56,425 nt of DNA from a virus (Duplodnaviria > Caudoviricetes). Position numbers and translations under genes: made by a program. The DNA is taken from IMG/VR virus record IMGVR_UViG_3300032212_000010, positions 1-56,425 of that record. One strand, given 5' to 3'. The notes under the pieces are model-generated. The model ran no database searches and had not been told where the DNA came from. It saw nothing but the letters and a program-made list of their open reading frames with translations. Position 1 is the stretch's first letter; the number at the start of each line of letters is the position of its first letter. This document shows positions 10,201 through 55,961 of the stretch, piece by piece.

Positions 10201-11459
10201 ACAGCCTGAATCGTGTTAACGTGCGCAATGCGACTGATGTCAACATTAACAGCACCACCGCCGTGACACTGGAAACCATTAATCAAACCGGCCAACTGAA
10301 TATTGCCGCTAATGGCATTACCACCAATACCAATCTAACTGCCAATGCAGAGCTTAATTTAAATGCGGGCACCGGCAGTTTAAATATTAATAATGATCTT
10401 ACGGTAAACAATGCGCTTGTCGATGAGCGCGTTATTTTTCTCAGCGCCGAACAGGATATTAATATTGCCGCCAATACCACCGTAACCGGATCATTTATTC
10501 TTGCTAATGCCAGTGCTGGGGATATTAATCAGGCGGGCAATATTATTCAGGATCAGACAACCGGAGATGGGAACGTTTATCTAATCGACCTGAATGCTCA
10601 ATCCATTATTATGAGCGGAACCGCATCAACCCAGGCAACCAATGAAATTTTTTATACGTCAACGGATGATCAATCCATCACATCACTTTCCGCAAACGTT
10701 GTTTCCCTCACATCAAATAGCGGTGCCATTACAGATGCGAATGGTGATGAGATAAATATCAATGCAGGGGGGCTTTTCATTAACGCTGACAGCGGGATTG
10801 GTATGGGCGATACCTTTGAGACCTCAGTTTCTGAATTAAACATCACCAATAATGGTGCCGTTATTGGCACCCGCACCGACAACAATGGCAACATCATTGA
10901 CATCAGAAGCTCTATTAATCTTAATAATGTAGGCGATGTACTTGTCACCAACCTGGTTAATACCGGCGATATTAATTTCAATAACACCACCGATGTGACG
11001 GTTGATAAAATTGATGCGGGACTTACCGTCGGTAGAGTCACCATGAATGTTGACAATGGTTCGGTGTTTGGAATTGATCGTGGCATTGGTAATGGCTTTT
11101 TAAACATTCCAGACATCACCGCCGATGTCGGTGTATTCTCTACTAACGGTAACTTTGGTACCTTTGAGAGACCCATCGTACTCAATATAAATTCCGAGTT
11201 CGTATTAAGCGGCATCATCAGTAGTACTTTTTTCCCCAATGGCAAGCCGCCCATTTATGTTGATACATCTGATATCAGTTTTGATATTTTTGATTCCATT
11301 AACAGCGTATCCGGGCAGCAGTTAATCGAAGTAGAATCGGTTGCGGATATTGATAAAGCCATTTTTACAAACTTGCAAAACTTTAACTCGCAGGAAATAG
11401 CCATCCGTTTACCCCGTGATCAAATATTTGATGATGAACTGGAACAGTACGACCAGTAA
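4290..11459 (+). CDS. Filamentous haemagglutinin-family TpsA exoprotein (2389 aa)
   Basis: Signal peptide ending AHA; TPS domain (INWDTFNI...SLNRI...ILVNPNGIFFG); GGFIETSG/GLWLIDP motifs; long N/T/G-rich beta-helical repeats. Confidence 0.92.
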   Translation: MKTGNKNTAFSGSLAVISTTSQILFYSLILSNLTLTPYAHAGPTGGNIVGGAGSINQSGLNTTINQTTGSMAINWDTFNINTNERVQYLQPDVSSISLNRILDNSGSKILGSIDANGKIILVNPNGIFFGANSQVNVGSLVASGLSISPTDFMNGNYMFNEVLGSKGTVINKGLLNAASGGSITLLGKQVTNEGVISATLGRVNMAAGRQAALIFNNEGTIGVKITKEILQDELGIDPALLNSGEINAAGGQVLLTASVSRDVFSQAVNSGTLSQATSVVVNPDGSMSLKKGADVVNSGAINVSSSTDIKRAGDVVVLGENISQTGNIKADSQAGSAGNIELHAGNKVELLNTATLTARADITEPETMGTGGNIKILGDKVGLLDNSVVDVSGTHGGGEALIGGDRQGENKNIRNAEFLYMGENAKVYADAIENGNGGKIITYADNTARIHGNLFARGGELRGDGGFIETSGKLGFKISNAPDTSAVKGDGGLWLIDPRNIIIQNGDGTNDNNFLESGTTIYTSNGSLSVIETATLLTGLDSGSIEIVTGGGSSDNGDITFNANLDYNGKGTGKSLTLSAFNEINFSDNASIFDSVPLGDSLSVELQANTGGNSNNGTGNISFGTNTSINTGGGSFIASGVGFNSGTTTISVGVGSINLDGISGDVTLGDLTANGTIASNLSIQNATNIFQQSGSTIIVGRDTFLGDASTNTVSLDQPFNTFGRNIVVKADTATVTGTGRIRLDSGSNITTALNLTSTNGGTLASTNSGTISVSNGSNNAIATFNTTGDVDFNNNNNFDNVSILSARDVTLRDTSGNIALSANNGADTGGLTGKLIVTATAGDITDFGEINVGGTTDLTVGNNRNIILDEALTTLSGQITVSAGTGNSFDNLTLTDTTGISLQSVAVNNNLFLTGDTVNLGRTAGTTTAANLTVNTTSTSFLTTNPITQTNPLNISGTTTLAVSEVFQGILLSNTANDFSIVNATARTVNLSDINAISLDTINAFNLTINAAITGTGNSDTNVITNATSTSNVSVTGTANLTARNTTSNTNYSILLNSDNNNFSSVSLNNAHNVTLTDNADAINLRSLNNSLNSLNVISTGTPTTGSAIGNIGTTGVSVSGAANFTVADNQSINLNGSNTFTTDPIFSSATPDNINNLIVTDTTDFTLQDDLITLGDLNINASNIVLQNTNVGNDLTLTATAVDATPMLIGTITQSTNFATTLTLGGLSTLDARTITLNQSTNDFQGNVVVNNSLAAVNLRDSAGGIVLGDASNAFVSNRLTVISTGNISQANSITTGITSLHAGIADVLFDTSDANNFTGNISIVNANDVNINDTTATFIESASVVNDLTLNSGGALTLGSSGRTVSVGNDLIANAAGAISQTGNSSTLTVTGSTQFTTAIDQSITLKNTTNRFSDINIISAGNVDLLDSADALSLQGDVTGFLNVRANGTNTAGFVITTPAELNVTGLATFTVVGGESINLNTAGNTFLSDPIFNTVNTGDRINHLLINDDTALTFQNNLNLDGDLTVNATGITFNNTQLFAGELLATSSTGPIQQTANTTLTVFGSSTLDGGTGGINLGEANNFQSTVFLTTNSPDTINLPSNVIIRDANALNIGTSTIAGDLTVTANIVTQSNDTIDGNGDGISVANAASFTLADNSSITLDNIDNQFNSISFSATTTGAILNNITISNSGALDLQGIQSNNLNATSLGNITQNNLTGNGALTINNLMQLDGSNITLNNVANNFNDVTILSGLAVSITDRNALNFMATSNINDSLTLEVLTGDISNDVAASLNITNNALLTARNGDIVLDSGLHDFNSVQLTSSGDVTLTDTNAIDLRNSIINGDLLISADTSMGGVDNNIINTSGNIQVDGSSRFISSAGADILLARTGSNHAFTGNISATGANSTRLNDVQINNSNDTRLQDITATNLQIDTSSNIIDVGIIDISNLTDLSTSADINLADTLSDNSLNRVNVRNATDVNINSTTAVTLETINQTGQLNIAANGITTNTNLTANAELNLNAGTGSLNINNDLTVNNALVDERVIFLSAEQDINIAANTTVTGSFILANASAGDINQAGNIIQDQTTGDGNVYLIDLNAQSIIMSGTASTQATNEIFYTSTDDQSITSLSANVVSLTSNSGAITDANGDEININAGGLFINADSGIGMGDTFETSVSELNITNNGAVIGTRTDNNGNIIDIRSSINLNNVGDVLVTNLVNTGDINFNNTTDVTVDKIDAGLTVGRVTMNVDNGSVFGIDRGIGNGFLNIPDITADVGVFSTNGNFGTFERPIVLNINSEFVLSGIISSTFFPNGKPPIYVDTSDISFDIFDSINSVSGQQLIEVESVADIDKAIFTNLQNFNSQEIAIRLPRDQIFDDELEQYDQ

Positions 11460-11504
11460 CACTTTTCACTTACCCATCATCAATCATATAAAACAGGGAC
11501 TGCT

Positions 11505-13403
11505 TTGTTGCGTACAACTTCTTATCTATTAATCTTTATTATCGGCTCCACTTTAACTGCCACCCCTTCATTTGCAGGGTTTCTGGATATGCCAGAAATC
11601 ACCCAAATGCCTGAGCTAAAACGCGAATCTTTACTTAAAGATTTAGATGTCCCCAGTGTGCGTGATCGCGACCCCGACCCCGAATCAGGGCCACGTCTAA
11701 ATGTGACTCGTTTTAAATTGCAGGGCATTGTTGAGTTTCCCGAGCTGGGCATTACAAAATTAAACATTGAAAAATTAATCGAACGTTATCGCTTTGAATT
11801 AATGCAGGAATATAAACTCATGGAGTCCGGTTATACCGAAGCGGAAGTCAATGCGGTAATTGACCTGCTTGTTGAAATCGAAAAAGAAACCCTGGATCGG
11901 CACGTTACCGATCTTGAGCTACAAAAACTGGTGTGGCTCATTCGCGAGCAACGCTCAAAGCGCGGTATTACATTAGGCGCAATCGAAACTGTTGCCGATA
12001 AAATCACTCAGTTTTATCGTGAGCGGGGGTTTATACTGGCAAAGGCCTATATTCCTGAACAGGAAATTCGCGATGGCATTGTCACCCTCACATTACTACT
12101 GGGGGCACTGGGTGAAGTTAAAGTAAACGACAATGAAATGTATAACGAAAAAATTATATCATCTGTTTTTGATGACATGCTCACAATGCCCGTTACCAGT
12201 GATGCAGTTGAAGAAAATTTGTATTTAATCAATGACTTTCCCGGTCTGGCAGTAGTCGGTTTATTTGAACCCGGCGCACAGGTGGGTGACACTTTGCTTA
12301 ATCTCAACGTTAAAGCCGAACAGCGCTACCATGCTAATATTCGCTATGATAATCATGGCACGGATGAAACTGGTAACCAGCGACTTTATGGTGAGGTATT
12401 AATCAATAATTTAGCGGGGCAGGCAGATGTGTTACATATTGGCGCATTGAATGCATTCTCGCCCAGCAATACTACCTACTACCAGTTACGGTACTCATTA
12501 AATTTATTCAGTCCGCGTTGGCGATTGATTATGGGTGCGACTCAAAACCAGTTTGTACTGGCACAAAATCAGGCTGATTTTCTTGGCACTTTAGAGCTGG
12601 GGGGTGAAACGGAACAAACCGATATTAGTGTGCAATATAAATTAAAACGCAGCCGTGTTGAAAACTATAACCTTGAACTGGTACGAGAAAACATTCTTTC
12701 TGACTTACAGCTGGGCAACATTCCCGACCCCGGCGGATTACTTGATGATGAAATCACCAATAACAAGCTTATTTTTAATTACGATATTTTGCAGGAAAGT
12801 AGCCAGATACTCCATCAGGGATTTGTGAGCGTCACCTCTGGCGAGTTTTTAAAAGGTATCGACCTGGGGCAGGATAAAAACTTTAACGTCTTACATTCTG
12901 ACTATACACTGATGACTTTTCTTAAGGTGCCCTATTTCGATTCAGAATCACGGTTGATCTTTAGAACCTCACTGCAATACACCGACTCAGCATTATCTTC
13001 TATCAGTCAGTTCTTTTTAGGTGGTCCAACCCGAGCCCGTGGTTATCCCGTCGATCAGTTTTCAGCCGATAATGCTGCTTATGCCGGTGTCGATTGGGTA
13101 CTACATTTTCCTTCATGGTTAGACTTTAATATTGGAAACGCATTGAGTTTAAAAGATATTGGCCAGCCTTTCTTTTTTGCCGATGCTGCTTATGGTGTTA
13201 AAAAAGCATTAAAAGCATCTAATGAAGATAGCAAGGCCACCCTGTATGATATTGGCATTGGCTTTCGTGTTTTTTATCAGAATACATTTCAGGGGAATAT
13301 TCAATTTGCTTTTCCTGTGAGCAATGACTTTAGTGATGTTGACCTGGAGCAGCCTGATGATAGCATCAGGGTGGTATTTGATTTTCAGTATAGTTTTAAA
13401 TAA
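11505..13403 (+). CDS. TpsB (ShlB/FhaC/HecB) outer-membrane transporter
   Basis: Signal peptide; POTRA motif (ITQFYRERGFILAKAYIPEQEIRDGIV); DNHG; loop-6 FFLGGPTRARGY; C-terminal FQYSF. Confidence 0.92.
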   Translation: MLRTTSYLLIFIIGSTLTATPSFAGFLDMPEITQMPELKRESLLKDLDVPSVRDRDPDPESGPRLNVTRFKLQGIVEFPELGITKLNIEKLIERYRFELMQEYKLMESGYTEAEVNAVIDLLVEIEKETLDRHVTDLELQKLVWLIREQRSKRGITLGAIETVADKITQFYRERGFILAKAYIPEQEIRDGIVTLTLLLGALGEVKVNDNEMYNEKIISSVFDDMLTMPVTSDAVEENLYLINDFPGLAVVGLFEPGAQVGDTLLNLNVKAEQRYHANIRYDNHGTDETGNQRLYGEVLINNLAGQADVLHIGALNAFSPSNTTYYQLRYSLNLFSPRWRLIMGATQNQFVLAQNQADFLGTLELGGETEQTDISVQYKLKRSRVENYNLELVRENILSDLQLGNIPDPGGLLDDEITNNKLIFNYDILQESSQILHQGFVSVTSGEFLKGIDLGQDKNFNVLHSDYTLMTFLKVPYFDSESRLIFRTSLQYTDSALSSISQFFLGGPTRARGYPVDQFSADNAAYAGVDWVLHFPSWLDFNIGNALSLKDIGQPFFFADAAYGVKKALKASNEDSKATLYDIGIGFRVFYQNTFQGNIQFAFPVSNDFSDVDLEQPDDSIRVVFDFQYSFK

Positions 13404-36625: not shown

Positions 36626-38014
36626 TCAAATGTAATGTATAGCCCTTTCAAGTTTAGCCGATAATTTCCAATTATTTTTTACAGAATCTGCCGATTCCTC
36701 AATACTACATTCAAGCAATAGCAGTAAATTAAGCTGAAATAATATTTCCATAAAATCACATAAGTAACTCATACTTGTTATAGATGCAGCTTGCTTCGTT
36801 AATGACTCATCGTAGTGAGTCAAATAGTTTCTATTATTAACAATTTTTGTTGTAATCCGACTTCTTTTCTCTGAGTTCCCAAGCAAGAACGAAAATGGCT
36901 TAATTAGCTTCTTTAGTCTAAACCTAAGATTTGGTTCATTTCCATACTTAAGCCTTCCTTCTATCCATTCTCTATGCTCTTTTGGAACAGAATCAAGAAC
37001 TTCATGTACTTTAGTCTCGTACTCACTTTTCGAAAACACACTATTACAATACAATCTTCTATGCAATGACTCTAAAGCATTCACCATAGAAGAAAAACGT
37101 TGTTCAATAAGAATATTTTTCCCGTGCATTACAGAAAAATAAAGATTAAGTGAAGGTAATATTTTATCGTACAGAATACGCCACCGATTCACAATTTCAG
37201 GAAATCTATCTTTTATATCTTCATAATTTAACAGTACATCCCGTCCATAAAAAGGAGATATAGAATCATGATCCATGAATGACTGAGAATAAATATCCAT
37301 ATATATTGGATTGCTTCTCTCATCAACTATTTCTGAATTAAACGCATGTATAATTTTCAACGGTAAACGATGATTTGAAACGAAACAAAAAAAATTAGAA
37401 AATTTCCACACGTACCGTAACAATTCATTAATACTGAATATTTCCTCATTGCTTTCTATAGATACTACTGGCTTTTGAGATAATTCGACACTCTCATGGT
37501 AATAGTATGTCATTGGTAAACTGGAAAAAAATTTAAACCCAAATAACAACCCCGGACAAATTGTATATTTTTCTTTTTCCAATAAGTTAAATTTTACAGT
37601 GCTTACTTTAAGATCATCAGAATGTTCTATCTTTATCCCTGATTTCAATAGCCATGAACCAAGATGCTCTAGCTCAAAATCGACTCCGGTAAAGGCAACA
37701 TCATCTATACTGCAAAAACCATATCCAATAACCGTATGCTTAGAATACAACTCTGTATACGCGTACCCATTACCCCAAAAAGATGAACTTTCAACATAGC
37801 TATCTATAAGAGTTACGTCTTTACTGTTTTGCAATCGCCCTAAAATTATCGAGTATTTACTTATTTCTTTAACATCATGACCATCAAACTTGCCCATAAG
37901 TTTCAAACAACATCGCCCATTAGATTCAATAACCAATGTGCCAGGGATTTTTTTATCCGGGTACTCTGGTAGCCACCAATACCCCCGCTTCTCCATCAAC
38001 TCTTCTATTTTCAT
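36626..38014 (-). CDS. ApeA-like HEPN RNase (anti-phage candidate)
   Basis: N-terminal GYWWLPE....IPGTL; ALESLHR; HEPN RxxxxH motif RNYLTH; AT-rich. Confidence 0.8.
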   Translation of the reverse strand: MKIEELMEKRGYWWLPEYPDKKIPGTLVIESNGRCCLKLMGKFDGHDVKEISKYSIILGRLQNSKDVTLIDSYVESSSFWGNGYAYTELYSKHTVIGYGFCSIDDVAFTGVDFELEHLGSWLLKSGIKIEHSDDLKVSTVKFNLLEKEKYTICPGLLFGFKFFSSLPMTYYYHESVELSQKPVVSIESNEEIFSINELLRYVWKFSNFFCFVSNHRLPLKIIHAFNSEIVDERSNPIYMDIYSQSFMDHDSISPFYGRDVLLNYEDIKDRFPEIVNRWRILYDKILPSLNLYFSVMHGKNILIEQRFSSMVNALESLHRRLYCNSVFSKSEYETKVHEVLDSVPKEHREWIEGRLKYGNEPNLRFRLKKLIKPFSFLLGNSEKRSRITTKIVNNRNYLTHYDESLTKQAASITSMSYLCDFMEILFQLNLLLLLECSIEESADSVKNNWKLSAKLERAIHYI

Positions 38015-38356: not shown

Positions 38357-38512
38357 TTATTTCTTGTTCTTGAATTTTTCCACTGACTCTTTCTGTTTAG
38401 TGATTTCAGATACCATCATTTTTACTGCCTGCGAATTATTCTTTAAGACTTGTTTAGCCTCGTCAACATCTGATACTTCTTTAGGAAATTTTTCAGAATT
38501 ATCATTACTCAT
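38357..38512 (-). CDS. Microprotein 2 of GNAT module A (51 aa)
   Basis: MSNDNSEKFPKEVSDVDEAKQVLKNNSQAVKMMVSEITKQKESVEKFKNKK; start overlaps the previous gene's end; below ORF-track cutoff. Confidence 0.55.
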   Translation of the reverse strand: MSNDNSEKFPKEVSDVDEAKQVLKNNSQAVKMMVSEITKQKESVEKFKNKK

Positions 38513-38714
38513 CACCATCAACCTCTTCATTATTTTTTAAGCGTTTTTTTAAGCGCTCAAGACTGACATCGTCAGTAGGCCCATTAATTACAGATGGTAA
38601 ATCAGCCTCATCTTCGACTTCAAGAGACTTCTTAATATATTTTTTCACAAAATCACTACCGGATTTCATTCTCTCGATTGCTTCTTGTGTCTCAATGTTA
38701 TCTTTGTCAGCCAT
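38505..38714 (-). CDS. Microprotein 1 of GNAT module A (charged, 69 aa)
   Basis: Starts 1 nt after the GNAT-like stop; ends EEVDGDE. Confidence 0.65.
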   Translation of the reverse strand: MADKDNIETQEAIERMKSGSDFVKKYIKKSLEVEDEADLPSVINGPTDDVSLERLKKRLKNNEEVDGDE

Positions 38715-38715
38715 A

Positions 38716-39267
38716 TTAATACTCCAGCTTCAAACTTGAATACTCAGTAACACCAAGGCGATTTTTAACAGGCTTATAACCAAGCGTCTTATAATAAGAA
38801 ACCACTTTATCATTCACCGGATTCATCATCCTTAATTCATCAGCACCTAACAACATTGCATAGTTAATTGCAGCCGATGTAACTATTGTTGTTAGTTGGT
38901 TTCTTAACGGGTTATCACTTAATGGTGATGCCTCAACTAGTTCCAGCCTAAGCTTTGTTTTTCTTTTGGTCGGTATACCATAACTTAACCCACATAATTG
39001 TCCACCTTGCCATACAGCAATATCAAAACGCTTTACTTCTTTGCTGTAATTATTATACATAGACATCCAACTCCACTGCGACCGAGATTTTCGATATGCC
39101 CCCTCTGTCACATTCTTCCAACTATCCGCTGTTTGTGCTGCACCAAACGATATTTCATCTAGGTCAAAGGCACTAATACTTCCCTTATATTGATCTAAGG
39201 TATGCTGATAACATACTTCGCGTAACTGCTGATAGTGTTCCCTAGTTTGTTTATACGTCCGAACCAT
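38716..39267 (-). CDS. GNAT-fold-like protein, module A
   Basis: RFDIAVW...LCGLSYG...LRLELVEASP...YAMLLGADELRMMNPVN...YYKTLGY; clear homologue at 52717. Confidence 0.65.
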   Translation of the reverse strand: MVRTYKQTREHYQQLREVCYQHTLDQYKGSISAFDLDEISFGAAQTADSWKNVTEGAYRKSRSQWSWMSMYNNYSKEVKRFDIAVWQGGQLCGLSYGIPTKRKTKLRLELVEASPLSDNPLRNQLTTIVTSAAINYAMLLGADELRMMNPVNDKVVSYYKTLGYKPVKNRLGVTEYSSLKLEY

Positions 39268-39394
39268 GGTATATCCCTTTGTTTTTATTAATAAAACAAC
39301 ATAACCTTACGCTGCATTTATTTATAATATTAACAAAGCTTTTTATATTCGGATACCCCTAAAATTATTTAACAACACCCCTGTTTGCCTATGC

Positions 39395-41892: not shown

Positions 41893-42828
41893 TTATCTCA
41901 TTAAACCGAATGCATTTTCATCATAATGACACTCATGTTCAGGCGTCATCATCAACAAATCTTTAGGTATTCCCTTAAGCAAAGAATATTCTTCTATTAA
42001 TGGTTTAAACTTATTACCCCCTAAATCACTAAGGCAGTTATAAAATATCAACATCATTTCATTCACAGATAGCTGAGCCCTTAAAAGATTACTATATAGG
42101 CACTTATCTTCTATATCGCTTGTGTGAATAAATTTTGCGATATTATACAAGCTTCTAAAATAATGACCTATTTCCGATTGATTCTTATCGTAAAAATCCA
42201 GATAAGCAGAGTTTATTACTTTTAATTTAGGCTTAATCAACGCCTCTTTTTCAGGATCACGATACATGGCTTTTTCTTTTTCGATGCCCACAATATTAGT
42301 TTTTTCTACATTATTAATTAAACAATATACAGTATCATCAAACTCTCTTTTGAACCTATCATAAAACACCTTAAAACAGTCTCTACCTTTGGTTGTTCTC
42401 TTTGTTCTTGAATTATAGAGATCTATGGACTTAACTATTTCCTGATGAAGTGATAATAATTGAAAAAATGTCCCCTCAAATCTTTGTCTAGACTGAGTCA
42501 ATGCCTGCTCTTTTTGAGCCTTACTGGTTTCCTCTAGCGCTTCAGCTGTTTTACTAAACTCCTTTTTCTGAATCAAAACAGAAACAGTTAACCAGTAAAA
42601 TGCTGAAAAAGCCACGAGAGGATTTAATATGCCACCTACAAAATCACCAAATGTACCCCAATCACCACTATTTAAACTTAGTGCCTGGTGTTGTACTACA
42701 TAAAACCAAACTGCATAGCCACCAATCACCAAACAAAATAAAATTCCAATAAATAGCCGACTACTTTTTATAGCACCTTCGAGATCATCATTTTTCATAT
42801 GCTTATCGCCAAATCTAGTCAGAGACAA
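41893..42828 (-). CDS. Putative phage abortive infection protein (putAbiC-like)
   Basis: WGTFGDFVGGILNP TM motif; FEGTFFQLL; GHYFRSLYNI..F; YSNLLRAQLS.NE...IFYN. Confidence 0.8.
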   Translation of the reverse strand: MSLTRFGDKHMKNDDLEGAIKSSRLFIGILFCLVIGGYAVWFYVVQHQALSLNSGDWGTFGDFVGGILNPLVAFSAFYWLTVSVLIQKKEFSKTAEALEETSKAQKEQALTQSRQRFEGTFFQLLSLHQEIVKSIDLYNSRTKRTTKGRDCFKVFYDRFKREFDDTVYCLINNVEKTNIVGIEKEKAMYRDPEKEALIKPKLKVINSAYLDFYDKNQSEIGHYFRSLYNIAKFIHTSDIEDKCLYSNLLRAQLSVNEMMLIFYNCLSDLGGNKFKPLIEEYSLLKGIPKDLLMMTPEHECHYDENAFGLMR

Positions 42829-48096: not shown

Positions 48097-49299
48097 ATGG
48101 CACGACCTCGCACCCAAGGTAGACGCGATCTACCGGACAATCTGCATCCGGTTGTAAAAAACAGGATCACTTATTACAGTTATCGCAACCCTGACACCGG
48201 GGAGCGAACCGGCTTTGGAACAAATAAAAAACTCGCCGTCCTTGCAGCCAAACGCATGAACGCCCTGATTTACTCTGCCGATGATCGGGTCTTACAGCTG
48301 GTGAATTTAGCCCAGCAGCCAGTTGAGCTACGCCAGACAAAAACACAGGCCGATACCCTGTTCACGGATTATCTGGATCACTTTAACACCACCGTTCTTC
48401 CCAAACGACGCAACCGTAAAGGTCAGCCGCTTTCACCTAAAACCCTGCAGGATTATGCCAACCAGATTGAGCACCTAAAAAACAGTCAACTGGGGGCGAT
48501 GTCAATTGGGTTTATCGGCTCAAACACCCATAGCCGTGAAGCCCGAAAAGCCATTAACCAATATTTAAATCAATTCCCGGACACCTCTTCTAATCGTCGC
48601 CGGGGTTTAATGATTCAAATTCTGAAACAGGCGATAGGGGATGGTGAATGTGACCGCAATAATGCGGATGACACCATTAAGAAAACCGAAGAGATTAAGC
48701 GCCAGCGCCTGCCGTTGGCGGCCTTCCAACAGATTTATGAGACTGCTGCCCCATGGTACAAAAATGTACTGGACTTAGCCTTGCAGACACTACAGCGCCG
48801 GGAAGATTTAGTGGTGATGGAATTTGCACAGATTGAGAATGCACAGCTGCGTTTTGTACAAATTAAAACCGGTCGAGCGATGGCGATTAATATTGGGCCA
48901 GAGCTGGATAGCATTATTAAACGGTGTCGGGATAATATTCCCTCTCCCTATCTTATCCATTACAAGCCGATCAAAGCCACCCGCACCCAACTGGACTCGA
49001 AGAATCATTGGACATCGATAACAGAGGATAAAGCGACTAAGCATTTTAGTACGTTGCGCGATACGCTGGGGCTGTTTGATGAACTGGAGCCTCGGGAGCG
49101 GCCTTCGTTTCATGAGATACGAGCCTTGGGGGCTGATTTGTATCGGGAGGCTGGGTGGGCGGAGGAAGCTATTCAGCAGCTGCTGGGGCATGCTGATGCT
49201 AAGATGACGCAGGTTTATTTGGATCGGCATCGTAGGGATGCAGTTGAATATAATGTTGTAGATTCTGGTTTAAAGACATTAACAAAACAAACAACCTAA
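48097..49299 (+). CDS. int: Tyrosine integrase, lambda Int type
   Basis: Arm-binding N-domain (LPDNL...YYSYRNPDTG...G); catalytic QRRED, QIKTG, FHEIRALG, LLGH, Y. Confidence 0.95.
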   Translation: MARPRTQGRRDLPDNLHPVVKNRITYYSYRNPDTGERTGFGTNKKLAVLAAKRMNALIYSADDRVLQLVNLAQQPVELRQTKTQADTLFTDYLDHFNTTVLPKRRNRKGQPLSPKTLQDYANQIEHLKNSQLGAMSIGFIGSNTHSREARKAINQYLNQFPDTSSNRRRGLMIQILKQAIGDGECDRNNADDTIKKTEEIKRQRLPLAAFQQIYETAAPWYKNVLDLALQTLQRREDLVVMEFAQIENAQLRFVQIKTGRAMAINIGPELDSIIKRCRDNIPSPYLIHYKPIKATRTQLDSKNHWTSITEDKATKHFSTLRDTLGLFDELEPRERPSFHEIRALGADLYREAGWAEEAIQQLLGHADAKMTQVYLDRHRRDAVEYNVVDSGLKTLTKQTT

Positions 49300-49313: not shown

Positions 49314-49823
49314 CTACTTATCTATGTCCACTTGAAAATCATAATCACCCGATTTTATTTTTTTTTGAGTAGCTTTAAAAAAACGTTCTGGCGGAGTAAG
49401 ACTATGCTTACGAATAGAATCTTGCTCATCCATAAGAGATATTACCTCCTTCTCAAATTCCTCAATACTTTTGCATGAAAAAATATTACCCGCAATTCTA
49501 AAACGATCTTGTAGATGCTTAAATGCAGCAGCTGATTCAGCCACACGACCAATATCTACATCTAATTTTAACGCTTCATATATTGCTGGAATTAGAGACG
49601 CTAAAAGAGCAAAAGATGCTGCTAGAAACTTTAAATTAGTATTACCTGAATCTACCAATATTGACCATGTAGCTAATCCTCCAAAAATAATAGGTAAAAC
49701 AATTAGTGCTTTTTTCCAAAACCTAATTGACCTTAACCAAATATAAAAAATAGTAGAAGTATACTTACATGACTCTTCCTGCCTTAAGCATTCATCAATA
49801 AGCCTTTCAAATCGTTTGTCCAT
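49314..49823 (-). CDS. SLATT-family 2-TM effector
   Basis: Two TM helices then a helical tail (A..FK.L.DRFR); overlaps the nucleotidyltransferase stop region. Confidence 0.75.
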   Translation of the reverse strand: MDKRFERLIDECLRQEESCKYTSTIFYIWLRSIRFWKKALIVLPIIFGGLATWSILVDSGNTNLKFLAASFALLASLIPAIYEALKLDVDIGRVAESAAAFKHLQDRFRIAGNIFSCKSIEEFEKEVISLMDEQDSIRKHSLTPPERFFKATQKKIKSGDYDFQVDIDK

Positions 49824-50707
49824 ACCACTTCCATCTGAATTTGATTACCAAATATTAATTGCCACTGTTCGCTCGCGAGTTTAATCATATCTAAATACTC
49901 ATATTCGCATGCTTTTTCTGCCCGATAATAAGCAGTAACAACTTGAGATTGCCAATTATCTCCAAGACTTATTAACTCACCAGTTCCTGGCACCACTACG
50001 CATTTATCTGCTTTATTATAAAGAAATACCAAAAAATCCCTAACCATCCAATCATAATAAAAAGCCGTTTCCTTGCGATACTTATACTGCCTCAAAAACT
50101 CCACTGCAATTAATTCTATATAAAAAGATTTTAATGGAACGTTACAATTTCTTTTCCAGCATTTCATCATTTTTATAAGAGGGATTAAGTTATTTGCACA
50201 CTCTGAATCTACACTAGATATAATATTGTATTCTGCTGCAGGATCAGCAGTTATGTAACTACCTCCATTCCGAGTATTACACAAAAAATAAGCCCCAGAT
50301 GTAAGCTCAAATACTGGAATCAGCTCAACATTCTGACTTTTAAAATTAATAGCCACTACTGGCCCGTCGCCCCTAATATCAGTGCTTGGGTATGCCGGTA
50401 GTAATAGGCTTTTCACTTCCTGCAAAAGACTTGATTGCTTATTACCTGCTCGGATTTGGTATCGATGATATACAGATATGGGCAATTTAAAATAAAGATC
50501 AATGTCTCCTGTAGGACGTATTTTTGTCTTTTTAAGCCATGACCCTGCAAAAAAAGCAGTATTATTAATATCAGCACTTCCATAATAATACTTATTCAAC
50601 ACATTAATTACGCCTAAAGCATGCCTGGATCCTTCATTTTCTTGTACATCAGTGTAGTTTAAATTTGCAATAAACGAATCAAACCTTCTTTTTACACCAA
50701 TCCACAT
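49784..50707 (-). CDS. CD-NTase / SMODS nucleotidyltransferase
   Basis: GSWLKKTKIRPTGDIDL; QSSLLQEVK; VELIPVF; LIKMMKCWK...LKSFYIEL. Confidence 0.88.
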   Translation of the reverse strand: MWIGVKRRFDSFIANLNYTDVQENEGSRHALGVINVLNKYYYGSADINNTAFFAGSWLKKTKIRPTGDIDLYFKLPISVYHRYQIRAGNKQSSLLQEVKSLLLPAYPSTDIRGDGPVVAINFKSQNVELIPVFELTSGAYFLCNTRNGGSYITADPAAEYNIISSVDSECANNLIPLIKMMKCWKRNCNVPLKSFYIELIAVEFLRQYKYRKETAFYYDWMVRDFLVFLYNKADKCVVVPGTGELISLGDNWQSQVVTAYYRAEKACEYEYLDMIKLASEQWQLIFGNQIQMEVVWTNDLKGLLMNA

Positions 50708-50871: not shown

Positions 50872-52395
50872 TTAATCCTCAGCGACAGGCCCGAACTCAC
50901 CTATCAATTTCGCATCCCCAATATCTGATGAATCGATAGAAGGCGAGGAAAGCACAACTGGAACAGTGCTTTCGCCATCTTGAACATTAAAAACCACATC
51001 CCCATCATTCACAGCATCTATAAAAGCCTCACTCTCAACAACTTCACGCTTGCTTACCATTTTAGGTGCCGATGGCTCCCATTTACTGAGATGCTGCACG
51101 ATACCCATATAATAATCCGTCAACATCTGCTCTATAATTTCGACAAATTTTCTGGGTGAAGAAAATTTCTTACTAAAGTCTTTCAGGTAAATAATTTTAA
51201 ATTCACGAATCTCCCTACCTTTCAGTCTTTCACCTGCATTTACAAAATCATCAATCGAAAATCGCTCAGCCACAGGACTCTTTTTGATTAATACCTCCAG
51301 ATAAATCTCTTTCACAAGCTCAGACAGTAAGGCGTCATTCTTTTTCACACAGGTATCCAGCTGCCGTTTAAGCCACCCTAGCTGACCTTTTAGTGTTTTA
51401 TCTTCAGGTGATTTTAGAGATACACTCATTTCTATCGTCCGTTTTTCAAATAAGGGCTGCACCTGAATATCTGATGCAGCGCCTCTTACACGCAGCACTG
51501 ATGACAACTGCTTAATCGATACCAATTCTTTACAGTCAGATTTTAGCCTCTCATCCAGCTTCCCTTTAAACTTTGTTGCTCCAGATTGCACCAGAACACC
51601 CAGTTTGCGACTCAAGAGTAGAGCCATATCACGTTCCTCTTGCTGCCAGCTTAATACAGCCTCCTGGACACACTCATCGGTAGCTTTAAGGCTTGCACCG
51701 GCATTAATCTTATCAACTACATCGACCCAGCCTGCCTTCATTTGGTTGAGACCAAAAACACCTGATTTATCCCACTCAAGGTAATTGACTACCTCTCGCA
51801 TAATCTCAACCTGATCTTCATCCTCTATTGCGGCATCCCCCTCGAACAACAACACATGCGCAATAGTTAGGAGATATGTCCATGAGAAGTGATGCATCTC
51901 CAGCCCGCGAATATTTTTAATGCTCACGGGTGACTGTGTGCTATCTGAAACAAACTGATTTGATATAGTAATAAATTTAGGGATAGCGTATTTTTTTGCT
52001 ATCTGTTGATAACGTTCAAGCTGCTCTTTTTCGAGTTCATTTTTGCCATTCTTAACTTCAACAATAGCAGCATCACGAATCGTGCCGGATTTAACAACTA
52101 AGATTAGCCCATCAATGCGAGAATCTGGAAAATCTTTAAATTCCACCTCGGAATAAACATATAGTGTTCCGCCAATTTGCATTTTTGCCTCTGACAGCAA
52201 GGCCTGTTTGAACTCCTTAACTAGCCGTATTGATGACAATAGCACCGAAGTAAGAGCCATTTCATCACCTAGCTTATAAACTGGGATGAGGCGGGGTTTT
52301 CTCAAACTAATTTCTTTTGAAACAATTAATTGATTAAATTCAGATTTTTTTAGCCCAATTAATTTACCTATTTTCTTCTGCACTAGATCAACCAC
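50872..52395 (-). CDS. PD-(D/E)XK nuclease-like protein
   Basis: YSEVEF...RIDGLI...AIVEVKNGKNEL..EQLERY...ITISNQ; AAGGAG SD before GTG. Confidence 0.65.
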   Translation of the reverse strand: MVDLVQKKIGKLIGLKKSEFNQLIVSKEISLRKPRLIPVYKLGDEMALTSVLLSSIRLVKEFKQALLSEAKMQIGGTLYVYSEVEFKDFPDSRIDGLILVVKSGTIRDAAIVEVKNGKNELEKEQLERYQQIAKKYAIPKFITISNQFVSDSTQSPVSIKNIRGLEMHHFSWTYLLTIAHVLLFEGDAAIEDEDQVEIMREVVNYLEWDKSGVFGLNQMKAGWVDVVDKINAGASLKATDECVQEAVLSWQQEERDMALLLSRKLGVLVQSGATKFKGKLDERLKSDCKELVSIKQLSSVLRVRGAASDIQVQPLFEKRTIEMSVSLKSPEDKTLKGQLGWLKRQLDTCVKKNDALLSELVKEIYLEVLIKKSPVAERFSIDDFVNAGERLKGREIREFKIIYLKDFSKKFSSPRKFVEIIEQMLTDYYMGIVQHLSKWEPSAPKMVSKREVVESEAFIDAVNDGDVVFNVQDGESTVPVVLSSPSIDSSDIGDAKLIGEFGPVAED

Positions 52396-52716: not shown

Positions 52717-53241
52717 ATGCTAGCAACACATATTGATGCAGAACAACGCTACACAAAACTTCGTAAAATGGCACTCGACACAGCCCAACGTACATTCCAA
52801 AGTGCAGGCAATCAGAACATTACCGCCTCAGCTATTACGCCTATGGCGCTATCCGCATCTAAGCTGTGGGGTCAATCCCCTAGCCGGCAGGTTGATTGGG
52901 ACTGGTTTGAAGGATATAACGCATTTAAATTCAGATACCCTAAACGCTTTGAGATTGCCCTGTGGGAAACGAACAAGCTTATTGGACTATCTATGGGCAG
53001 GCCAACCTATCATGGCACGGCATTAAGGCTGGACGTGGTTGAAGCTTCTCCACCAGATTTAGGGGATAGACCACCAATATTCGATATGATATTAGTCGCG
53101 TATGGAATATATGCGCGCTTTATCAATGCTTCTGAAATAAGAATAATGAACCCAATCAATGATGACGTGAAACATTATTATGAAAGCTTTGGATATACCT
53201 ATGTTGACAAGAAAGATTATCTATTTCGAGAGGTTCTGTAA
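52717..53241 (+). CDS. GNAT-fold-like protein, module B
   Basis: RFEIALW...LIGLSMGRPT...LRLDVVEASP...YARFINASEIRIMNPIN...YYESFGY. Confidence 0.65.
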   Translation: MLATHIDAEQRYTKLRKMALDTAQRTFQSAGNQNITASAITPMALSASKLWGQSPSRQVDWDWFEGYNAFKFRYPKRFEIALWETNKLIGLSMGRPTYHGTALRLDVVEASPPDLGDRPPIFDMILVAYGIYARFINASEIRIMNPINDDVKHYYESFGYTYVDKKDYLFREVL

Positions 53242-53438
53242 TGAATAACATAACCGATCTTAAAAAAGCTCAAAAGAAAAAACGTGAGAAAACGGGCTGG
53301 ACACAGGAAGAAATTGAACAAATGGCGGCAAAGGAAATGCAGGAACATAAGAAAAAAGCTGAAAATGAACCTGAACAGCTCGTTTCGGGTGATATGCAAA
53401 AAATTATCGACGGAGATGATGATGAAGAAAACAAATAA
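53241..53438 (+). CDS. Microprotein 1 of GNAT module B (charged, 65 aa)
   Basis: TAATG coupling to the GNAT-like gene; ends IDGDDDEENK. Confidence 0.65.
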   Translation: MNNITDLKKAQKKKREKTGWTQEEIEQMAAKEMQEHKKKAENEPEQLVSGDMQKIIDGDDDEENK

Positions 53439-53583
53439 TAAACCTATGCTAGACCATGAAAAACAAAGCCAGCCGCTTGCCGGTGAGACCTCTCCTGAGG
53501 AGGCTCTCCTCAAAGCCAATATTTTTGCTGAACTAGAAAAGAAACAGCTTGAGACCAAAAAAACCAAAGCTGGGCAAAAGTAG
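53422..53583 (+). CDS. Microprotein 2 of GNAT module B
   Basis: GGAG (53412-53415) before ATG 53422, overlapping the previous gene end; alternative start 53446. Confidence 0.5.
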   Translation: MKKTNNKPMLDHEKQSQPLAGETSPEEALLKANIFAELEKKQLETKKTKAGQK

Positions 53584-53809
53584 CCATCATATTATTCTTT
53601 AAAATCAAATTCAGGGCGCTTTTTGCGCCTTATTTAGACTTACCCACATCTACCCCTTTAATACCAGCATTAAAAGCCTCTACAGCCCTTTAAGCACTAT
53701 ATATAAAACACCTGGCAAACAGCATCACAATTCAGGCAATAAAACACAGGCAATTGATCAAATAACAACCAGAAGAATAACCGGGAAACTGTTTTTAAGG
53801 AGTGGGGTT

Positions 53810-53880: not shown

Positions 53881-53893
53881 CTAAACATAAATA

Positions 53894-53939
53894 TGGTGCC
53901 GGCACCATGAGTCGAACACGGGACCTACTGATTACAAGT
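53894..53939 (-). pseudogene. Second tRNA-Thr(TGT) 3' half = att junction between tandem elements
   Basis: Identical to 750-795; again lacks the 5' half and is followed by phage-arm sequence. Confidence 0.92.
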
Positions 53940-54276
53940 TATGAGACGGGTCACTGCCAAGCCCTTGTAATCACTAACTAAACACCTTTAAAACTTTACT
54001 ATGAAAACTGCATTTCGAGTCGTTTAAAAACAATACGTTACACCACAGTTTTCAGAATCACTTCCGGCTATTGCTCTCCTTAGCGAGGGCGGATTCTATA
54101 ACCTCCTAAACACACGGTCAACCCCTTTTAACAACAAGCAAACACAATCATCAACAAGCCTTTGATTTAAAACGAAATATTTTTAATTCAAAGCTTGCTT
54201 CAATGACCAAATCAAGCGTTACTTTAGGCATTGAAAACAAGCCACATTTAACTACCACCTTACTAAGGAATAACCA

Positions 54277-54708
54277 ATGCCAATATCACAAGCACAGACC
54301 CGGATTCTTGAACTCGCTTACGCCAATAATGGATATTTTGATCCGTCCATGACACCCCTTCGAGGTGGCGCACTCAAAAAAGTCATCACCGCACTACAAA
54401 ACAAATCCCTACTAACGACCCAAACAAAACGCGGCTACCCCATTACAAACAAGGGTATCGAAACCCTTGGGATTCAGATCCAAAAACCAACTCCACGCAA
54501 TGCCCGAGAAGGCTCAAAAACCGCAAAGCTTATAAAAATGCTACAACGCAAAAATGGCGCGACCAACATACAGATACAGGACGCCTTTAACTGGCAGCCT
54601 CATTCGGTACGCAGCATGATTTCAGGAACACTGAAAAAGAAAATGGGATATGAGGTGATCACTGATATTAACAACTCAGGTAACTTTATTTACAGGATCG
54701 ACATTTAA
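54277..54708 (+). CDS. DUF3489 protein (paralogue of 1132-1563)
   Basis: Same length, same WQPHSVR motif. Confidence 0.8.
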   Translation: MPISQAQTRILELAYANNGYFDPSMTPLRGGALKKVITALQNKSLLTTQTKRGYPITNKGIETLGIQIQKPTPRNAREGSKTAKLIKMLQRKNGATNIQIQDAFNWQPHSVRSMISGTLKKKMGYEVITDINNSGNFIYRIDI

Positions 54709-54755
54709 TTACGTCTTAATAATAGTCAAACGATACCTGACAAGGATTTGCAATC

Positions 54756-55073
54756 ATGACTCAACACGCAATTGCCCCCTTATTCCCAGAACACGGATGG
54801 GAGGAAAGCAATAACCTGCTAGATACCTTTTTCTATCAGGAACTCACCCAGGCAGAATATCGCCGGTGCCATGAAAATGAAAGCATCACGCAGTCGGCAC
54901 AAATTATTCATGAAAACATGTTAAGTCGAATTTTAAACATACAGACGAAAGTGAACTCGCATAACGTAAAAACTTTTGCACCGGAACTAACACTCACCGA
55001 TAACATTTGTAAAACATTAAACCTGCCAAAACAAAATTTTACATCACGACATAACGAAATAATTTCACGCTAA
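54756..55073 (+). CDS. Hypothetical protein (paralogue of 1612-1941)
   Basis: Shared PLFPEHGWEESNNLLDTFFYQELT. Confidence 0.7.
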   Translation: MTQHAIAPLFPEHGWEESNNLLDTFFYQELTQAEYRRCHENESITQSAQIIHENMLSRILNIQTKVNSHNVKTFAPELTLTDNICKTLNLPKQNFTSRHNEIISR

Positions 55074-55227
55074 GACAGCGTTTGACAAATACAAATTTTA
55101 TTGACTACTATTGACGTGTTATTTTTTACGTTACTTAAATAACCGAACTAGTCCATAAATAAACGAAAATAAATAAACAAGAATAAACAAGCGAGGTAAT
55201 AAAGATGAAATTTCAATAATTAAATAG

Positions 55228-55299
55228 ACGCAAGTTCAAGGTGCGCTAACACCCTGAACCCACTAACCACCAACAACCTCTTAGGAGTTGCTCATGGCT
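55228..55299 (-). ncRNA. SymR-like element, copy 2
   Basis: Near-identical to 2074-2146 except in the loop of the SD hairpin. Confidence 0.5.
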
Positions 55300-55599
55300 A
55301 ATTGTAATATTACGTCACGAACCCCCATTGTCGGAAGCTTTTTTTCCACAATAGGTTATATCCCACCGGTGCCGACACGTTTTTGTGTTTCTCGGCCATT
55401 TTTACCCTCGATTCAATCGCTTAAATCCATGACTTACATGGAAACCCTGTGCGCGCAAGTGTTCATCCTGCCCACATCAATTAACGTCAATCCGGATAAC
55501 AGCCGATTACTGATCGAGGCCCTGTCCTTTGAAATACCATTGCGTTTGTCACTGTTGGAAAAAAGGCCGCCCTTGTTACTTGCGGCCCTTTCACCTTAA
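55294..55599 (+). CDS. Divergent SymE-like protein, copy 2
   Basis: Frame and length kept relative to 2141-2446. Confidence 0.4.
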   Translation: MANCNITSRTPIVGSFFSTIGYIPPVPTRFCVSRPFLPSIQSLKSMTYMETLCAQVFILPTSINVNPDNSRLLIEALSFEIPLRLSLLEKRPPLLLAALSP

Positions 55600-55672
55600 C
55601 CGGGCGATGTGTACGTAAAAACACATTAGCCAGGTGGTTGCTACCGACGCTTTTTACAAAGCGCCGGTTTCC
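55559..55672 (-). ncRNA. Candidate structured sRNA, copy 2
   Basis: Stems conserved with 2406-2519. Confidence 0.5.
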
Positions 55673-55703
55673 AATAATTGACAAACATTTCAGGGATAAC
55701 ACT

Positions 55704-55961
55704 ATGACGTTAAAAGATCGTTTTATCGAAGCGGTTAAAAACGGTGAGTTAGGCACCATGGACGATCAGGGCACCATGATCACATTGCAGGAATTTAGAG
55801 ACTATTTTTCCGATATTAAAACCCAGTACATCCTATCATTTTTACCCGCCGCGACCATTGAACCGGGGCAGCGCACCATGAGCCACACCAAGTTTGTGTT
55901 TAGGGTACGTAAGGGGGTTTATCGGGTGCATCCGGATGCGATTGATCACAAAACTGAATAA
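55704..55961 (+). CDS. Hypothetical protein (paralogue of 2551-2796)
   Basis: Near-identical up to GVYRVH. Confidence 0.7.
   Translation: MTLKDRFIEAVKNGELGTMDDQGTMITLQEFRDYFSDIKTQYILSFLPAATIEPGQRTMSHTKFVFRVRKGVYRVHPDAIDHKTE

Follow-up and report, generated by a model that had tools for sequence, protein, structure and literature searches.

The virus record IMGVR_UViG_3300032212_000010 (IMG/VR; Caudoviricetes) carries two non-identical copies of a three-gene cassette, here called modules A and B. In each, a gene for an enzyme with a predicted GNAT fold is followed by two small open reading frames (ORFs), ORF2 and ORF3, which overlap one another. The window analysed is the whole record, 56,425 nucleotides (nt) long. 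The three-gene layout recurs among genomes beyond chance and is a conserved, self-contained unit. None of its three protein families, enzyme or microprotein, has been characterised. We propose, at about even confidence, that the cassette is a new tripartite, reverse-order toxin–antitoxin-like module in which the enzyme is the effector and ORF2 neutralises it. This estimate draws on the pairing of a basic enzyme with an acidic, coupled, predicted binder, on the autonomy of the cassette, its patchy, multi-copy spread and the divergence of its paralogues within one genome, on residence in variable regions, prophage cargo sites and some defence islands, on decay that strikes the enzyme first, and on precedents among GNATs.

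The coordinates and three-ORF layout given for both modules in a preliminary description of this DNA were confirmed (Table 1). The two enzymes are paralogues (32% identity over 177 columns, BLASTP E 1e-26), and the motifs that this description had read in both large proteins are present in the alignment. It had also described the small partners as fast-evolving; between modules, identity is 14% for ORF2 and 19% for ORF3, well below that of the enzymes. In module A, the ORF2 ATG lies 1 nt past the enzyme stop, with a GGAG 8 nt upstream, and ORF3 overlaps ORF2 by 26 nt. Further in-frame ATGs occur at codons 5 and 7 of this ORF3, and either is possibly the start. In module B, the enzyme stop and the ORF2 start are joined by a TAATG overlap with a shared A, ORF3 overlaps ORF2 by 23 nt, and a GGAG precedes the ORF3 ATGs. 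Read from the sequence, the DGD near the end of ORF2 overlaps, in both copies, a Shine-Dalgarno-like GGAG or GAGG and the ATG(s) of the third ORF. The DGD(E/D) ending that this description saw in both ORF2 copies is not conserved in the family, which keeps an acidic tail and an E-P pair instead.

The cassette was counted across genomes at 34 loci. These are modules A and B, 20 of the 22 found by a genome contig scan with a five-row alignment, locus L025 and 11 new loci. L007 (too short) and L036 were left out of this count, and L026–L030 and L042 are refetches of earlier places. A neighbourhood survey for two downstream small ORFs, as proposed in the preliminary description, found both at 25 of the 34 loci and at least one abutting small ORF at 32. 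The remaining loci carry one ORF of 83–91 amino acids (aa) (5/34), one of 53–65 aa (2/34), or none that is recognisable (2/34), the last being a Klebsiella grimontii contig (L013) and a remnant at a contig end. The loci with an 83–91-aa ORF (L011, L021, L038, L040 and L041) form a subclade with the motif ELFPDELEEYxPEERR and a Lys-rich end. The idea that this ORF is a fusion of ORF2 and ORF3 was not supported, since the hhalign matches, while collinear, were insignificant (E 0.0075 at a probability of 5%; E 0.3).

No other gene travels with the cassette to a comparable extent. In an all-versus-all comparison of neighbouring ORFs, no other family was common to more than three loci, and the sole three-locus set consists of ABC-type proteins. 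The neighbours are varied and include housekeeping genes, restriction-type nucleases, a C5 methylase, SoFic, ApeA, integrases and transposases. When the class was sampled evenly, three of 400 genomes had the family, two of them with four matches each; genomes reached through loci had 1, 1, 3, 3 and 4 matches. The family recurs in marine bacteria, and paralogues within one genome are of different subtypes. A viral contig collection contributed one locus (L025) besides this record, and tblastn gave no match among 50,697 phage records. The excluded L007 is a 611-nt contig labelled Halorubrum tibetense. In the residues listed, its enzyme matches that of Simiduia litorea (L006) exactly; contamination of an archaeal assembly is the probable explanation, and not the presence of the family in an archaeon.

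In a tree of 26 enzymes, small-ORF type tracks the enzyme clades. The tree requires five label changes against a minimum of four, which was matched by none of 200 shuffles. The A-type clade has a support of 96/93, and the deepest supported split separates the two window copies. This position argues that modules A and B were acquired separately and did not arise by local duplication.

The small ORFs are held to a narrow geometry. ORF2 is 55–72 aa long and ORF3 46–60 aa; the ORF2 start ranges from 4 nt inside the enzyme stop to 10 nt beyond it, and ORF2 abuts or overlaps that stop at all 25 loci with two small ORFs. ORF2 and ORF3 overlap at 21 of 22 aligned loci, and in 21 of the 22 they keep the same relative frame, so that a fused or frameshifted ORF2–ORF3 product is conceivable. 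ORF2 contains a near-invariant E-P inside an EEPxxLASG-like motif, and its tail is acidic in all 22 sequences (the last 15 residues carry a net charge of −1 to −7). ORF3 has the core [ED]-K-[QN], in the larger B-type group EKQxxPxxxExxPxxA, and a Lys-rich tail in 21 of 22 (net charge +3 to +6). The median isoelectric point (pI) is 5.2 for ORF2 and 10.1 for ORF3 (n = 22 each), and 9.4 for the enzyme (n = 101). Relatives that share just 13–46% aa identity in these ORFs still agree in their position, length, frame and motif. Moreover, the differences between close pairs fall mainly at third codon positions (positions 1/2/3 of ORF2: 1/1/6, 2/3/10 and 18/7/38; of ORF3: 2/1/9 and 2/8/15), which indicates that the small ORFs are genes.

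Neither small ORF of either module belongs to a family in Pfam, NCBIfam, PHROGs or PADLOC. At a maximum E-value of 1, the Pfam matches of the small proteins are to unrelated families and all fall below cutoff, the best being KORA (E 0.0038; 17.8 bits, where the cutoff is 26.7). Profile searches recovered 59 ORF2 clusters and nine ORF3 clusters, all unnamed or ‘hypothetical’ and none with a Pfam domain; ORF3 is usually overlooked by gene callers.

The enzyme is likewise nearly nameless. Both window enzymes lack a match in Pfam, NCBIfam and PADLOC, so that none of the three proteins has a model in these libraries, in agreement with the preliminary description of the system as a candidate undescribed one. 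The only library family matching both enzymes is phrog_4350 (E 1e-8 for module A and 2e-6 for the second enzyme), which, being unannotated, adds a name and no function. A profile of five sequences gathers 797 representative clusters at E ≤ 0.001, of which 456 reach E ≤ 1e-10. Where sources name the members, nearly all are a ‘hypothetical protein’; the sole other label is one UniRef ‘N-acetyltransferase domain-containing protein’. One of 101 members touches PF00583 (E 6.7e-4).

Structure prediction is more informative, and from the models we confidently assign the enzyme to the GNAT fold, as its early label ‘GNAT-like’ had implied. The AlphaFold2 (AF2) model of the module A enzyme, built from a 101-row alignment, has a mean predicted local distance difference test score (pLDDT) of 94.9 and a predicted template modelling score of 0.90. 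Its elements follow the order β1-α1-α2-β2-β3-β4-α3-β5-α4-β6(-β7), a full GNAT with an extra N-terminal helix. Foldseek returned 497 matches in the Protein Data Bank (PDB) at E ≤ 0.001, and all of those listed are GNATs. Among the matches listed, the nearest solved structures are Ard1, SpeG, PaiA, Ta0374 and RimI, with 9–17% identity; the template modelling (TM) score by target reaches up to 0.75 for Ard1. A first, shallower structure model gave the same GNAT picture, with 63 viral models matching at E ≤ 0.001, and an Atlas model found RimI-like neighbour clusters (TM by query 0.61–0.71). Profile matches to PDB sequences were only marginal: a probably spurious one to TFIIA (E 0.0046) in the region of the N-terminal helix, and two to acetyltransferases (E 0.19–0.36).

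Some of the conserved residues are of a catalytic type. In GNATs, a Tyr in helix α4 takes the role of general acid. Y159, the candidate for this role, lies in helix α4 (residues 153–161) and is invariant in all 101 members, as are G97 and P150, the latter at the end of β5; Y12, W50, W65, W67, L91, L94 and G163 are nearly invariant, and E112, at the end of β4, occurs in 84 of 101. Because of the invariant Tyr and Pro and the conserved Glu, the enzyme is likely active, and we read it, from its sequence, as probably an active but non-canonical GNAT, that is, an acyl-CoA-dependent acyltransferase.

The predicted complex of the enzyme with its small partners bears on the role of ORF2. The model covers module B, chosen because its alignments are deeper, with three chains (enzyme, ORF3 and ORF2) and ORF2 as the scored partner. 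ORF2 scored 0.88 (runs 0.88, 0.89 and 0.88) and the best of three controls 0.00. The score mark is reached by 58 of 80 solved complexes and two of 110 mismatched pairs, counts that calibrate only roughly here, since the model had three chains and alignments of our own making. At least 76% of contacts are common to the runs, and the partner pLDDT is at least 74. On the enzyme the contacts involve residues 105–113 (β4), 120–137 (the loop and α3), 143–158 (β5 and α4) and the N-terminal helix; on ORF2 they involve residues 19–58, with L47 and V48 against the end of β4. In GNATs, β4, α3, β5 and α4 form the acyl-CoA site. ORF2 is thus predicted to bind across the β4-α3-β5-α4 face, which from general knowledge of that site places it over the cofactor face.

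Decayed copies of the cassette point in the same direction. Seven copies have a disrupted or truncated enzyme gene: a frameshift in L004, an in-frame stop in L011 and L016 (TAA), a 5′ truncation in L019 and L024, and remnants at L041 and L023. The small ORF(s) are intact in six of these, L023 being the exception. The reverse case, an intact enzyme without a partner, occurs at one locus, L013. Three enzymes that are short at the N-terminus (L021, L032 and L035) were counted neither way.

Together, these observations are consistent with the following mechanism, in which we infer enzymatic activity, inhibition by ORF2, toxicity, a defence function and a role for ORF3. Each module would be an autonomous three-gene operon. 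The first gene would encode a basic GNAT enzyme of ∼180 aa that acts as a growth-arresting effector, and the second an acidic microprotein translationally coupled to it. The helix of ORF2 and its EEPxxLASG segment would stretch over the enzyme's β4-α3-β5-α4 face; since this face holds acetyl-CoA in GNATs, ORF2 would act as a stoichiometric inhibitor. The putative antitoxin role of ORF2 rests on the module B predicted complex and the decay pattern. ORF3 may be a regulator, a nucleic-acid adaptor or a second neutraliser. The two non-identical copies would be cargo beside defence genes, plausibly serving addiction or an abortive-infection-type defence. We conjecture further, as something possible rather than probable, that the cassette represents a tripartite toxin–antitoxin or abortive-infection family in which a non-canonical GNAT is silenced by a microprotein in its cofactor cleft, and in which the Lys-rich second microprotein, in its constant overlapping frame, is a decoy substrate, a sensor or a nucleic-acid adaptor that sets the trigger. 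The two paralogues would then be mutually insulated defence cargo beside ApeA and CBASS.

Several results weigh against the toxin–antitoxin-like reading. Some concern the enzyme. The nearest structures listed are housekeeping Nα- and polyamine acetyltransferases; the solved GNAT toxins TacT, AtaT and KacT are absent from the top matches listed in both Foldseek searches, and a profile search of PDB sequences gave no GNAT toxin at E ≤ 1. Motif A of GNATs is a pyrophosphate loop, Q/R-x-x-G-x-G/A, between β4 and α3. The preliminary description had held this loop to be missing, which is right for both window copies (NPLRNQ in A and DRPPIF in B). The family consensus, [HN]-P-L-[KR]-G, retains just part of the loop, and 65 of 101 members have its Gly. 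Consequently, acetyl-CoA may not be the donor, or the activity of the window copies may be low. Other points concern the partners. Pfam finds no ribbon-helix-helix (RHH) or helix-turn-helix (HTH) domain in the small proteins (maximum E-value 1), which leaves autoregulation unexplained. The predicted complex is that of module B, whereas the cassette flagged at the outset is module A, whose small proteins diverge from those of B to the extent given above. In the three-chain model, no confident contact was seen between ORF3 and ORF2, and contact between ORF3 and the enzyme was unscored; a peptide in the enzyme cleft could also be a substrate rather than an inhibitor. Finally, the L013 contig of 3.7 kb has an intact enzyme and no recognisable small ORF, most chromosomal loci lie among housekeeping genes outside recognisable prophages, and clear defence neighbours were found only at L005 and L012, and arguably L006, among 19 genome loci scanned.

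The main alternative, possible though rather unlikely, is that the cassette encodes a non-toxic enzyme complex, in which the GNAT acylates a small partner, for example at the Lys-rich tail or the N-terminus of ORF3, or uses the partners as specificity or regulatory subunits. The output would be a modified microprotein that serves the cell or the phage in some way. The structural proximity to Nα-acetyltransferases (Ard1, RimI and NatC/D/E) and polyamine acetyltransferases (SpeG and PaiA) and the conserved Lys-rich tail of ORF3 are as this explanation would have them. The predicted position of ORF2 in the cleft, with its high score over controls, also fits a substrate, and co-inheritance of enzyme clade and partner type fits enzyme–substrate co-evolution equally well. 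However, the predicted ORF2 footprint covers the whole cofactor face and extends beyond the acceptor side, as judged from general GNAT knowledge. The patchy multi-copy spread, the divergent paralogues within genomes and the enzyme-first decay (6/7) are more typical of selfish modules, and no transporter, protease or further biosynthetic gene recurs nearby.

Distinctly improbable, in our estimate, is a reversal of roles, with the basic ORF3 (or ORF2) as the harmful product and the GNAT as its antidote by acylation. ORF3 is indeed small, basic and Lys-rich, and GNAT immunity enzymes exist for peptide-nucleotide antibiotics. Yet ORF3 has no hydrophobic segment, and the six loci with intact small ORFs beside a broken or truncated enzyme (see above) should then be harmful to their carriers, the antidote having been lost. 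We give slightly less credence still to a phage counter-defence function, with the enzyme acylating and disabling a host immune protein and the small proteins as cofactors. Acetyltransferase anti-CRISPRs are known, and both window copies reside in an integrated phage-related element beside defence genes; against this, the viral collections searched hold so few copies (one further viral contig and none of the phage records), and most copies are chromosomal and outside recognisable prophages. Hardly credible is the idea that the small ORFs are open by chance, which would leave the GNAT-like gene as the only true one. They are short and match no family, and ORF3 is rarely annotated, but the features kept at 25 of the 34 loci despite low identity, the third-position bias and the number of ORF2 clusters found by profile already contradict it.

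The toxin–antitoxin-like reading has several points of comparison among known systems. Like the GNAT-RHH modules (TacAT, AtaRT, ItaRT and KacAT), the cassette pairs a small basic GNAT enzyme with a small acidic protein, and has a patchy, multi-copy distribution linked to mobile elements. The partner is also predicted to lie over the cofactor region, and KacA impairs the binding of acetyl-CoA by KacT (PMC6698736). Here, however, the partner is encoded downstream, lacks an RHH/DUF1778 domain and is accompanied by a third gene; moreover, the acetyl-CoA motif differs and the enzyme has no significant sequence match to those toxins, nor do they appear among the top Foldseek matches listed. The preliminary description had presented known GNAT toxins as having an upstream RHH antitoxin. 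This does not hold for all of them: in the GNAT-Xre system PacTA of Pseudomonas aeruginosa the antitoxin is downstream of the toxin (PMC9561280). This reverse gene order is all that the cassette shares with GNAT-Xre systems. PacA has an HTH-Xre domain; in ORF2 and ORF3 Pfam finds no HTH, the sub-cutoff KORA match being the only related one, and there are two small genes here rather than one.

Tripartite toxin–antitoxin modules include omega-epsilon-zeta, PasABC and HipBST. They share with the cassette the logic of an effector, a neutraliser and an accessory or regulatory third protein, and differ in gene order and in their unrelated protein families. RimI/Ard1 and SpeG/PaiA acetyltransferases, the best structural matches among those listed, differ from the enzyme in its extra N-terminal helix, its conserved W50, W65 and W67, its non-canonical cofactor loop and its dedicated small partner genes. 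None of the six module proteins matches the defence-system models of PADLOC-DB 2.0. No account of a GNAT gene with two small, mutually overlapping genes downstream turned up in a search of main texts in a limited collection of papers.

The two modules occupy different positions in the window. Phage genes (tail, head, portal, terminase, replication, repressor, excisionase and integrase) span ∼13.5–49.3 kb. Module A lies within this span, between lysis-region genes and a ParB-methyltransferase/terminase block, whereas module B is 3.4 kb past the integrase gene. Both lie between the copies of a 46-bp exact direct repeat (Table 1). Each repeat copy is followed by ∼2 kb of DNA that is 86–92% identical between the two sites (744–2800 and 53888–55940) and contains a DUF3489 gene (1132–1563 and 54277–54708). 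This arrangement looks like tandem related integrated elements, or a duplication of the att site with a conserved element end. ARAGORN and Rfam called no tRNA there, but the repeat looks like the 3′ portion of one. The claim that the layout occurs twice in one prophage is therefore defensible for module A and needs a caveat for module B, which is beyond the integrase and whose inclusion depends on where the element ends. The companion claim of AT-rich sites is borne out, with a GC content of 0.33–0.35 at module A (37–39 kb) and 0.38–0.39 at module B (52–54 kb) against mostly 0.44–0.51 in the phage structural region. The gene upstream of module A is phrog_1924, which, with the lack of RHH domains among the small ORFs, upholds the remark that no upstream RHH antitoxin is present. 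The promoter match upstream of module A is not decisive, as the scan gave 10 matches where shuffles led us to expect 5.2. The hairpin after module B was not listed by the terminator scan because its T run is too short for the scan rule. The idea of an integron cassette was dropped, as inspection by eye found no attC-like ends downstream of either module. Among sequencing runs, a single one, of DNA and perhaps from the source sample, contains the stretch, and no RNA run is listed for it.

Both modules have defence genes close by. An ApeA gene is the immediate downstream neighbour of module A; at L012, too, an ApeA gene lies ∼1.8 kb upstream of the cassette. Directly beyond the integrase gene is a CBASS pair, followed by a 507-aa ORF and then module B. 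L025, the one further viral contig, has the 507-aa ORF and module B in colinear arrangement, with 93.7% identity across 2612 nt; the ORF was not found beside the cassette at other loci. From the neighbours ApeA, CBASS and putAbiC, a defence or addiction role for the modules in this element is plausible. The putAbiC ORF sits in a very AT-rich stretch (GC 0.29–0.34) and adjoins a 309-aa ORF of no family. A two-partner-secretion-like pair is also inside the repeat-bracketed region, outside the phage structural genes.

Table 1. Cassette genes and neighbouring features in the window
Feature	Position	Strand	Evidence or remark
Module A enzyme, 183 aa, predicted GNAT fold, unnamed family, A-type clade	38716-39267	-	ORF, AF2, Foldseek
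Module A ORF2, 69-aa acidic microprotein, putative inhibitor (antitoxin-like)	38505-38714	-	pI 4.57; aligns with 21 relatives
Module A ORF3, 51-57-aa basic microprotein, Lys-rich tail	38357-38530	-	pI 9.52; A-type alignment subgroup
Sigma-70-like promoter match, weak, upstream of module A	39364-39391	-	9 of 12
Module B enzyme, 174-aa paralogue, predicted GNAT fold, B-type clade	52717-53241	+	family profile E 1.7e-56
Module B ORF2, 65-aa acidic microprotein, NEPEQLVSG motif	53241-53438	+	predicted enzyme binder
Module B ORF3, 55-aa basic microprotein, EKQxxPxxGExxPEEA motif, Lys-rich tail	53416-53583	+	
GC hairpin GGCGC-TTTTT-GCGCC then TTATTT, terminator-like end of module B	53615-53635	+	read from sequence
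ApeA-type HEPN defence protein	36626-38014	-	PADLOC PDC-S58 E 9e-83; Pfam ApeA_NTD1 and HEPN_Apea
311-aa ORF with putAbiC domain	41893-42828	-	Pfam E 9e-24; PADLOC AbiP/AbiC
Integrase gene	48097-49299		
CBASS pair, type I-like: oligonucleotide cyclase and 2TM/SLATT effector	49314-50707	-	PADLOC cyclase E 5e-116
507-aa ORF	50872-52395	-	divergent from module B; no match in Pfam, PHROGs, NCBIfam, PADLOC
Two-partner-secretion-like pair: 2389-aa protein with DUF5649 repeats and 632-aa ShlB/FhaC-type transporter	4290-13403	+	
46-bp exact direct repeat	750-795 and 53894-53939		modules A and B both between copies

If the toxin–antitoxin-like reading is true, the cassette would represent a new partner architecture for GNAT toxins, with two overlapping microproteins that have no DNA-binding domain. 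Three protein families that are so far mostly ‘hypothetical’ would gain names and a role open to testing. At less than 1 kb, the cassette would also offer a compact model for the inhibition of an enzyme's cofactor site by a microprotein, and would explain part of the unannotated cargo in marine gammaproteobacterial genomes and prophages.

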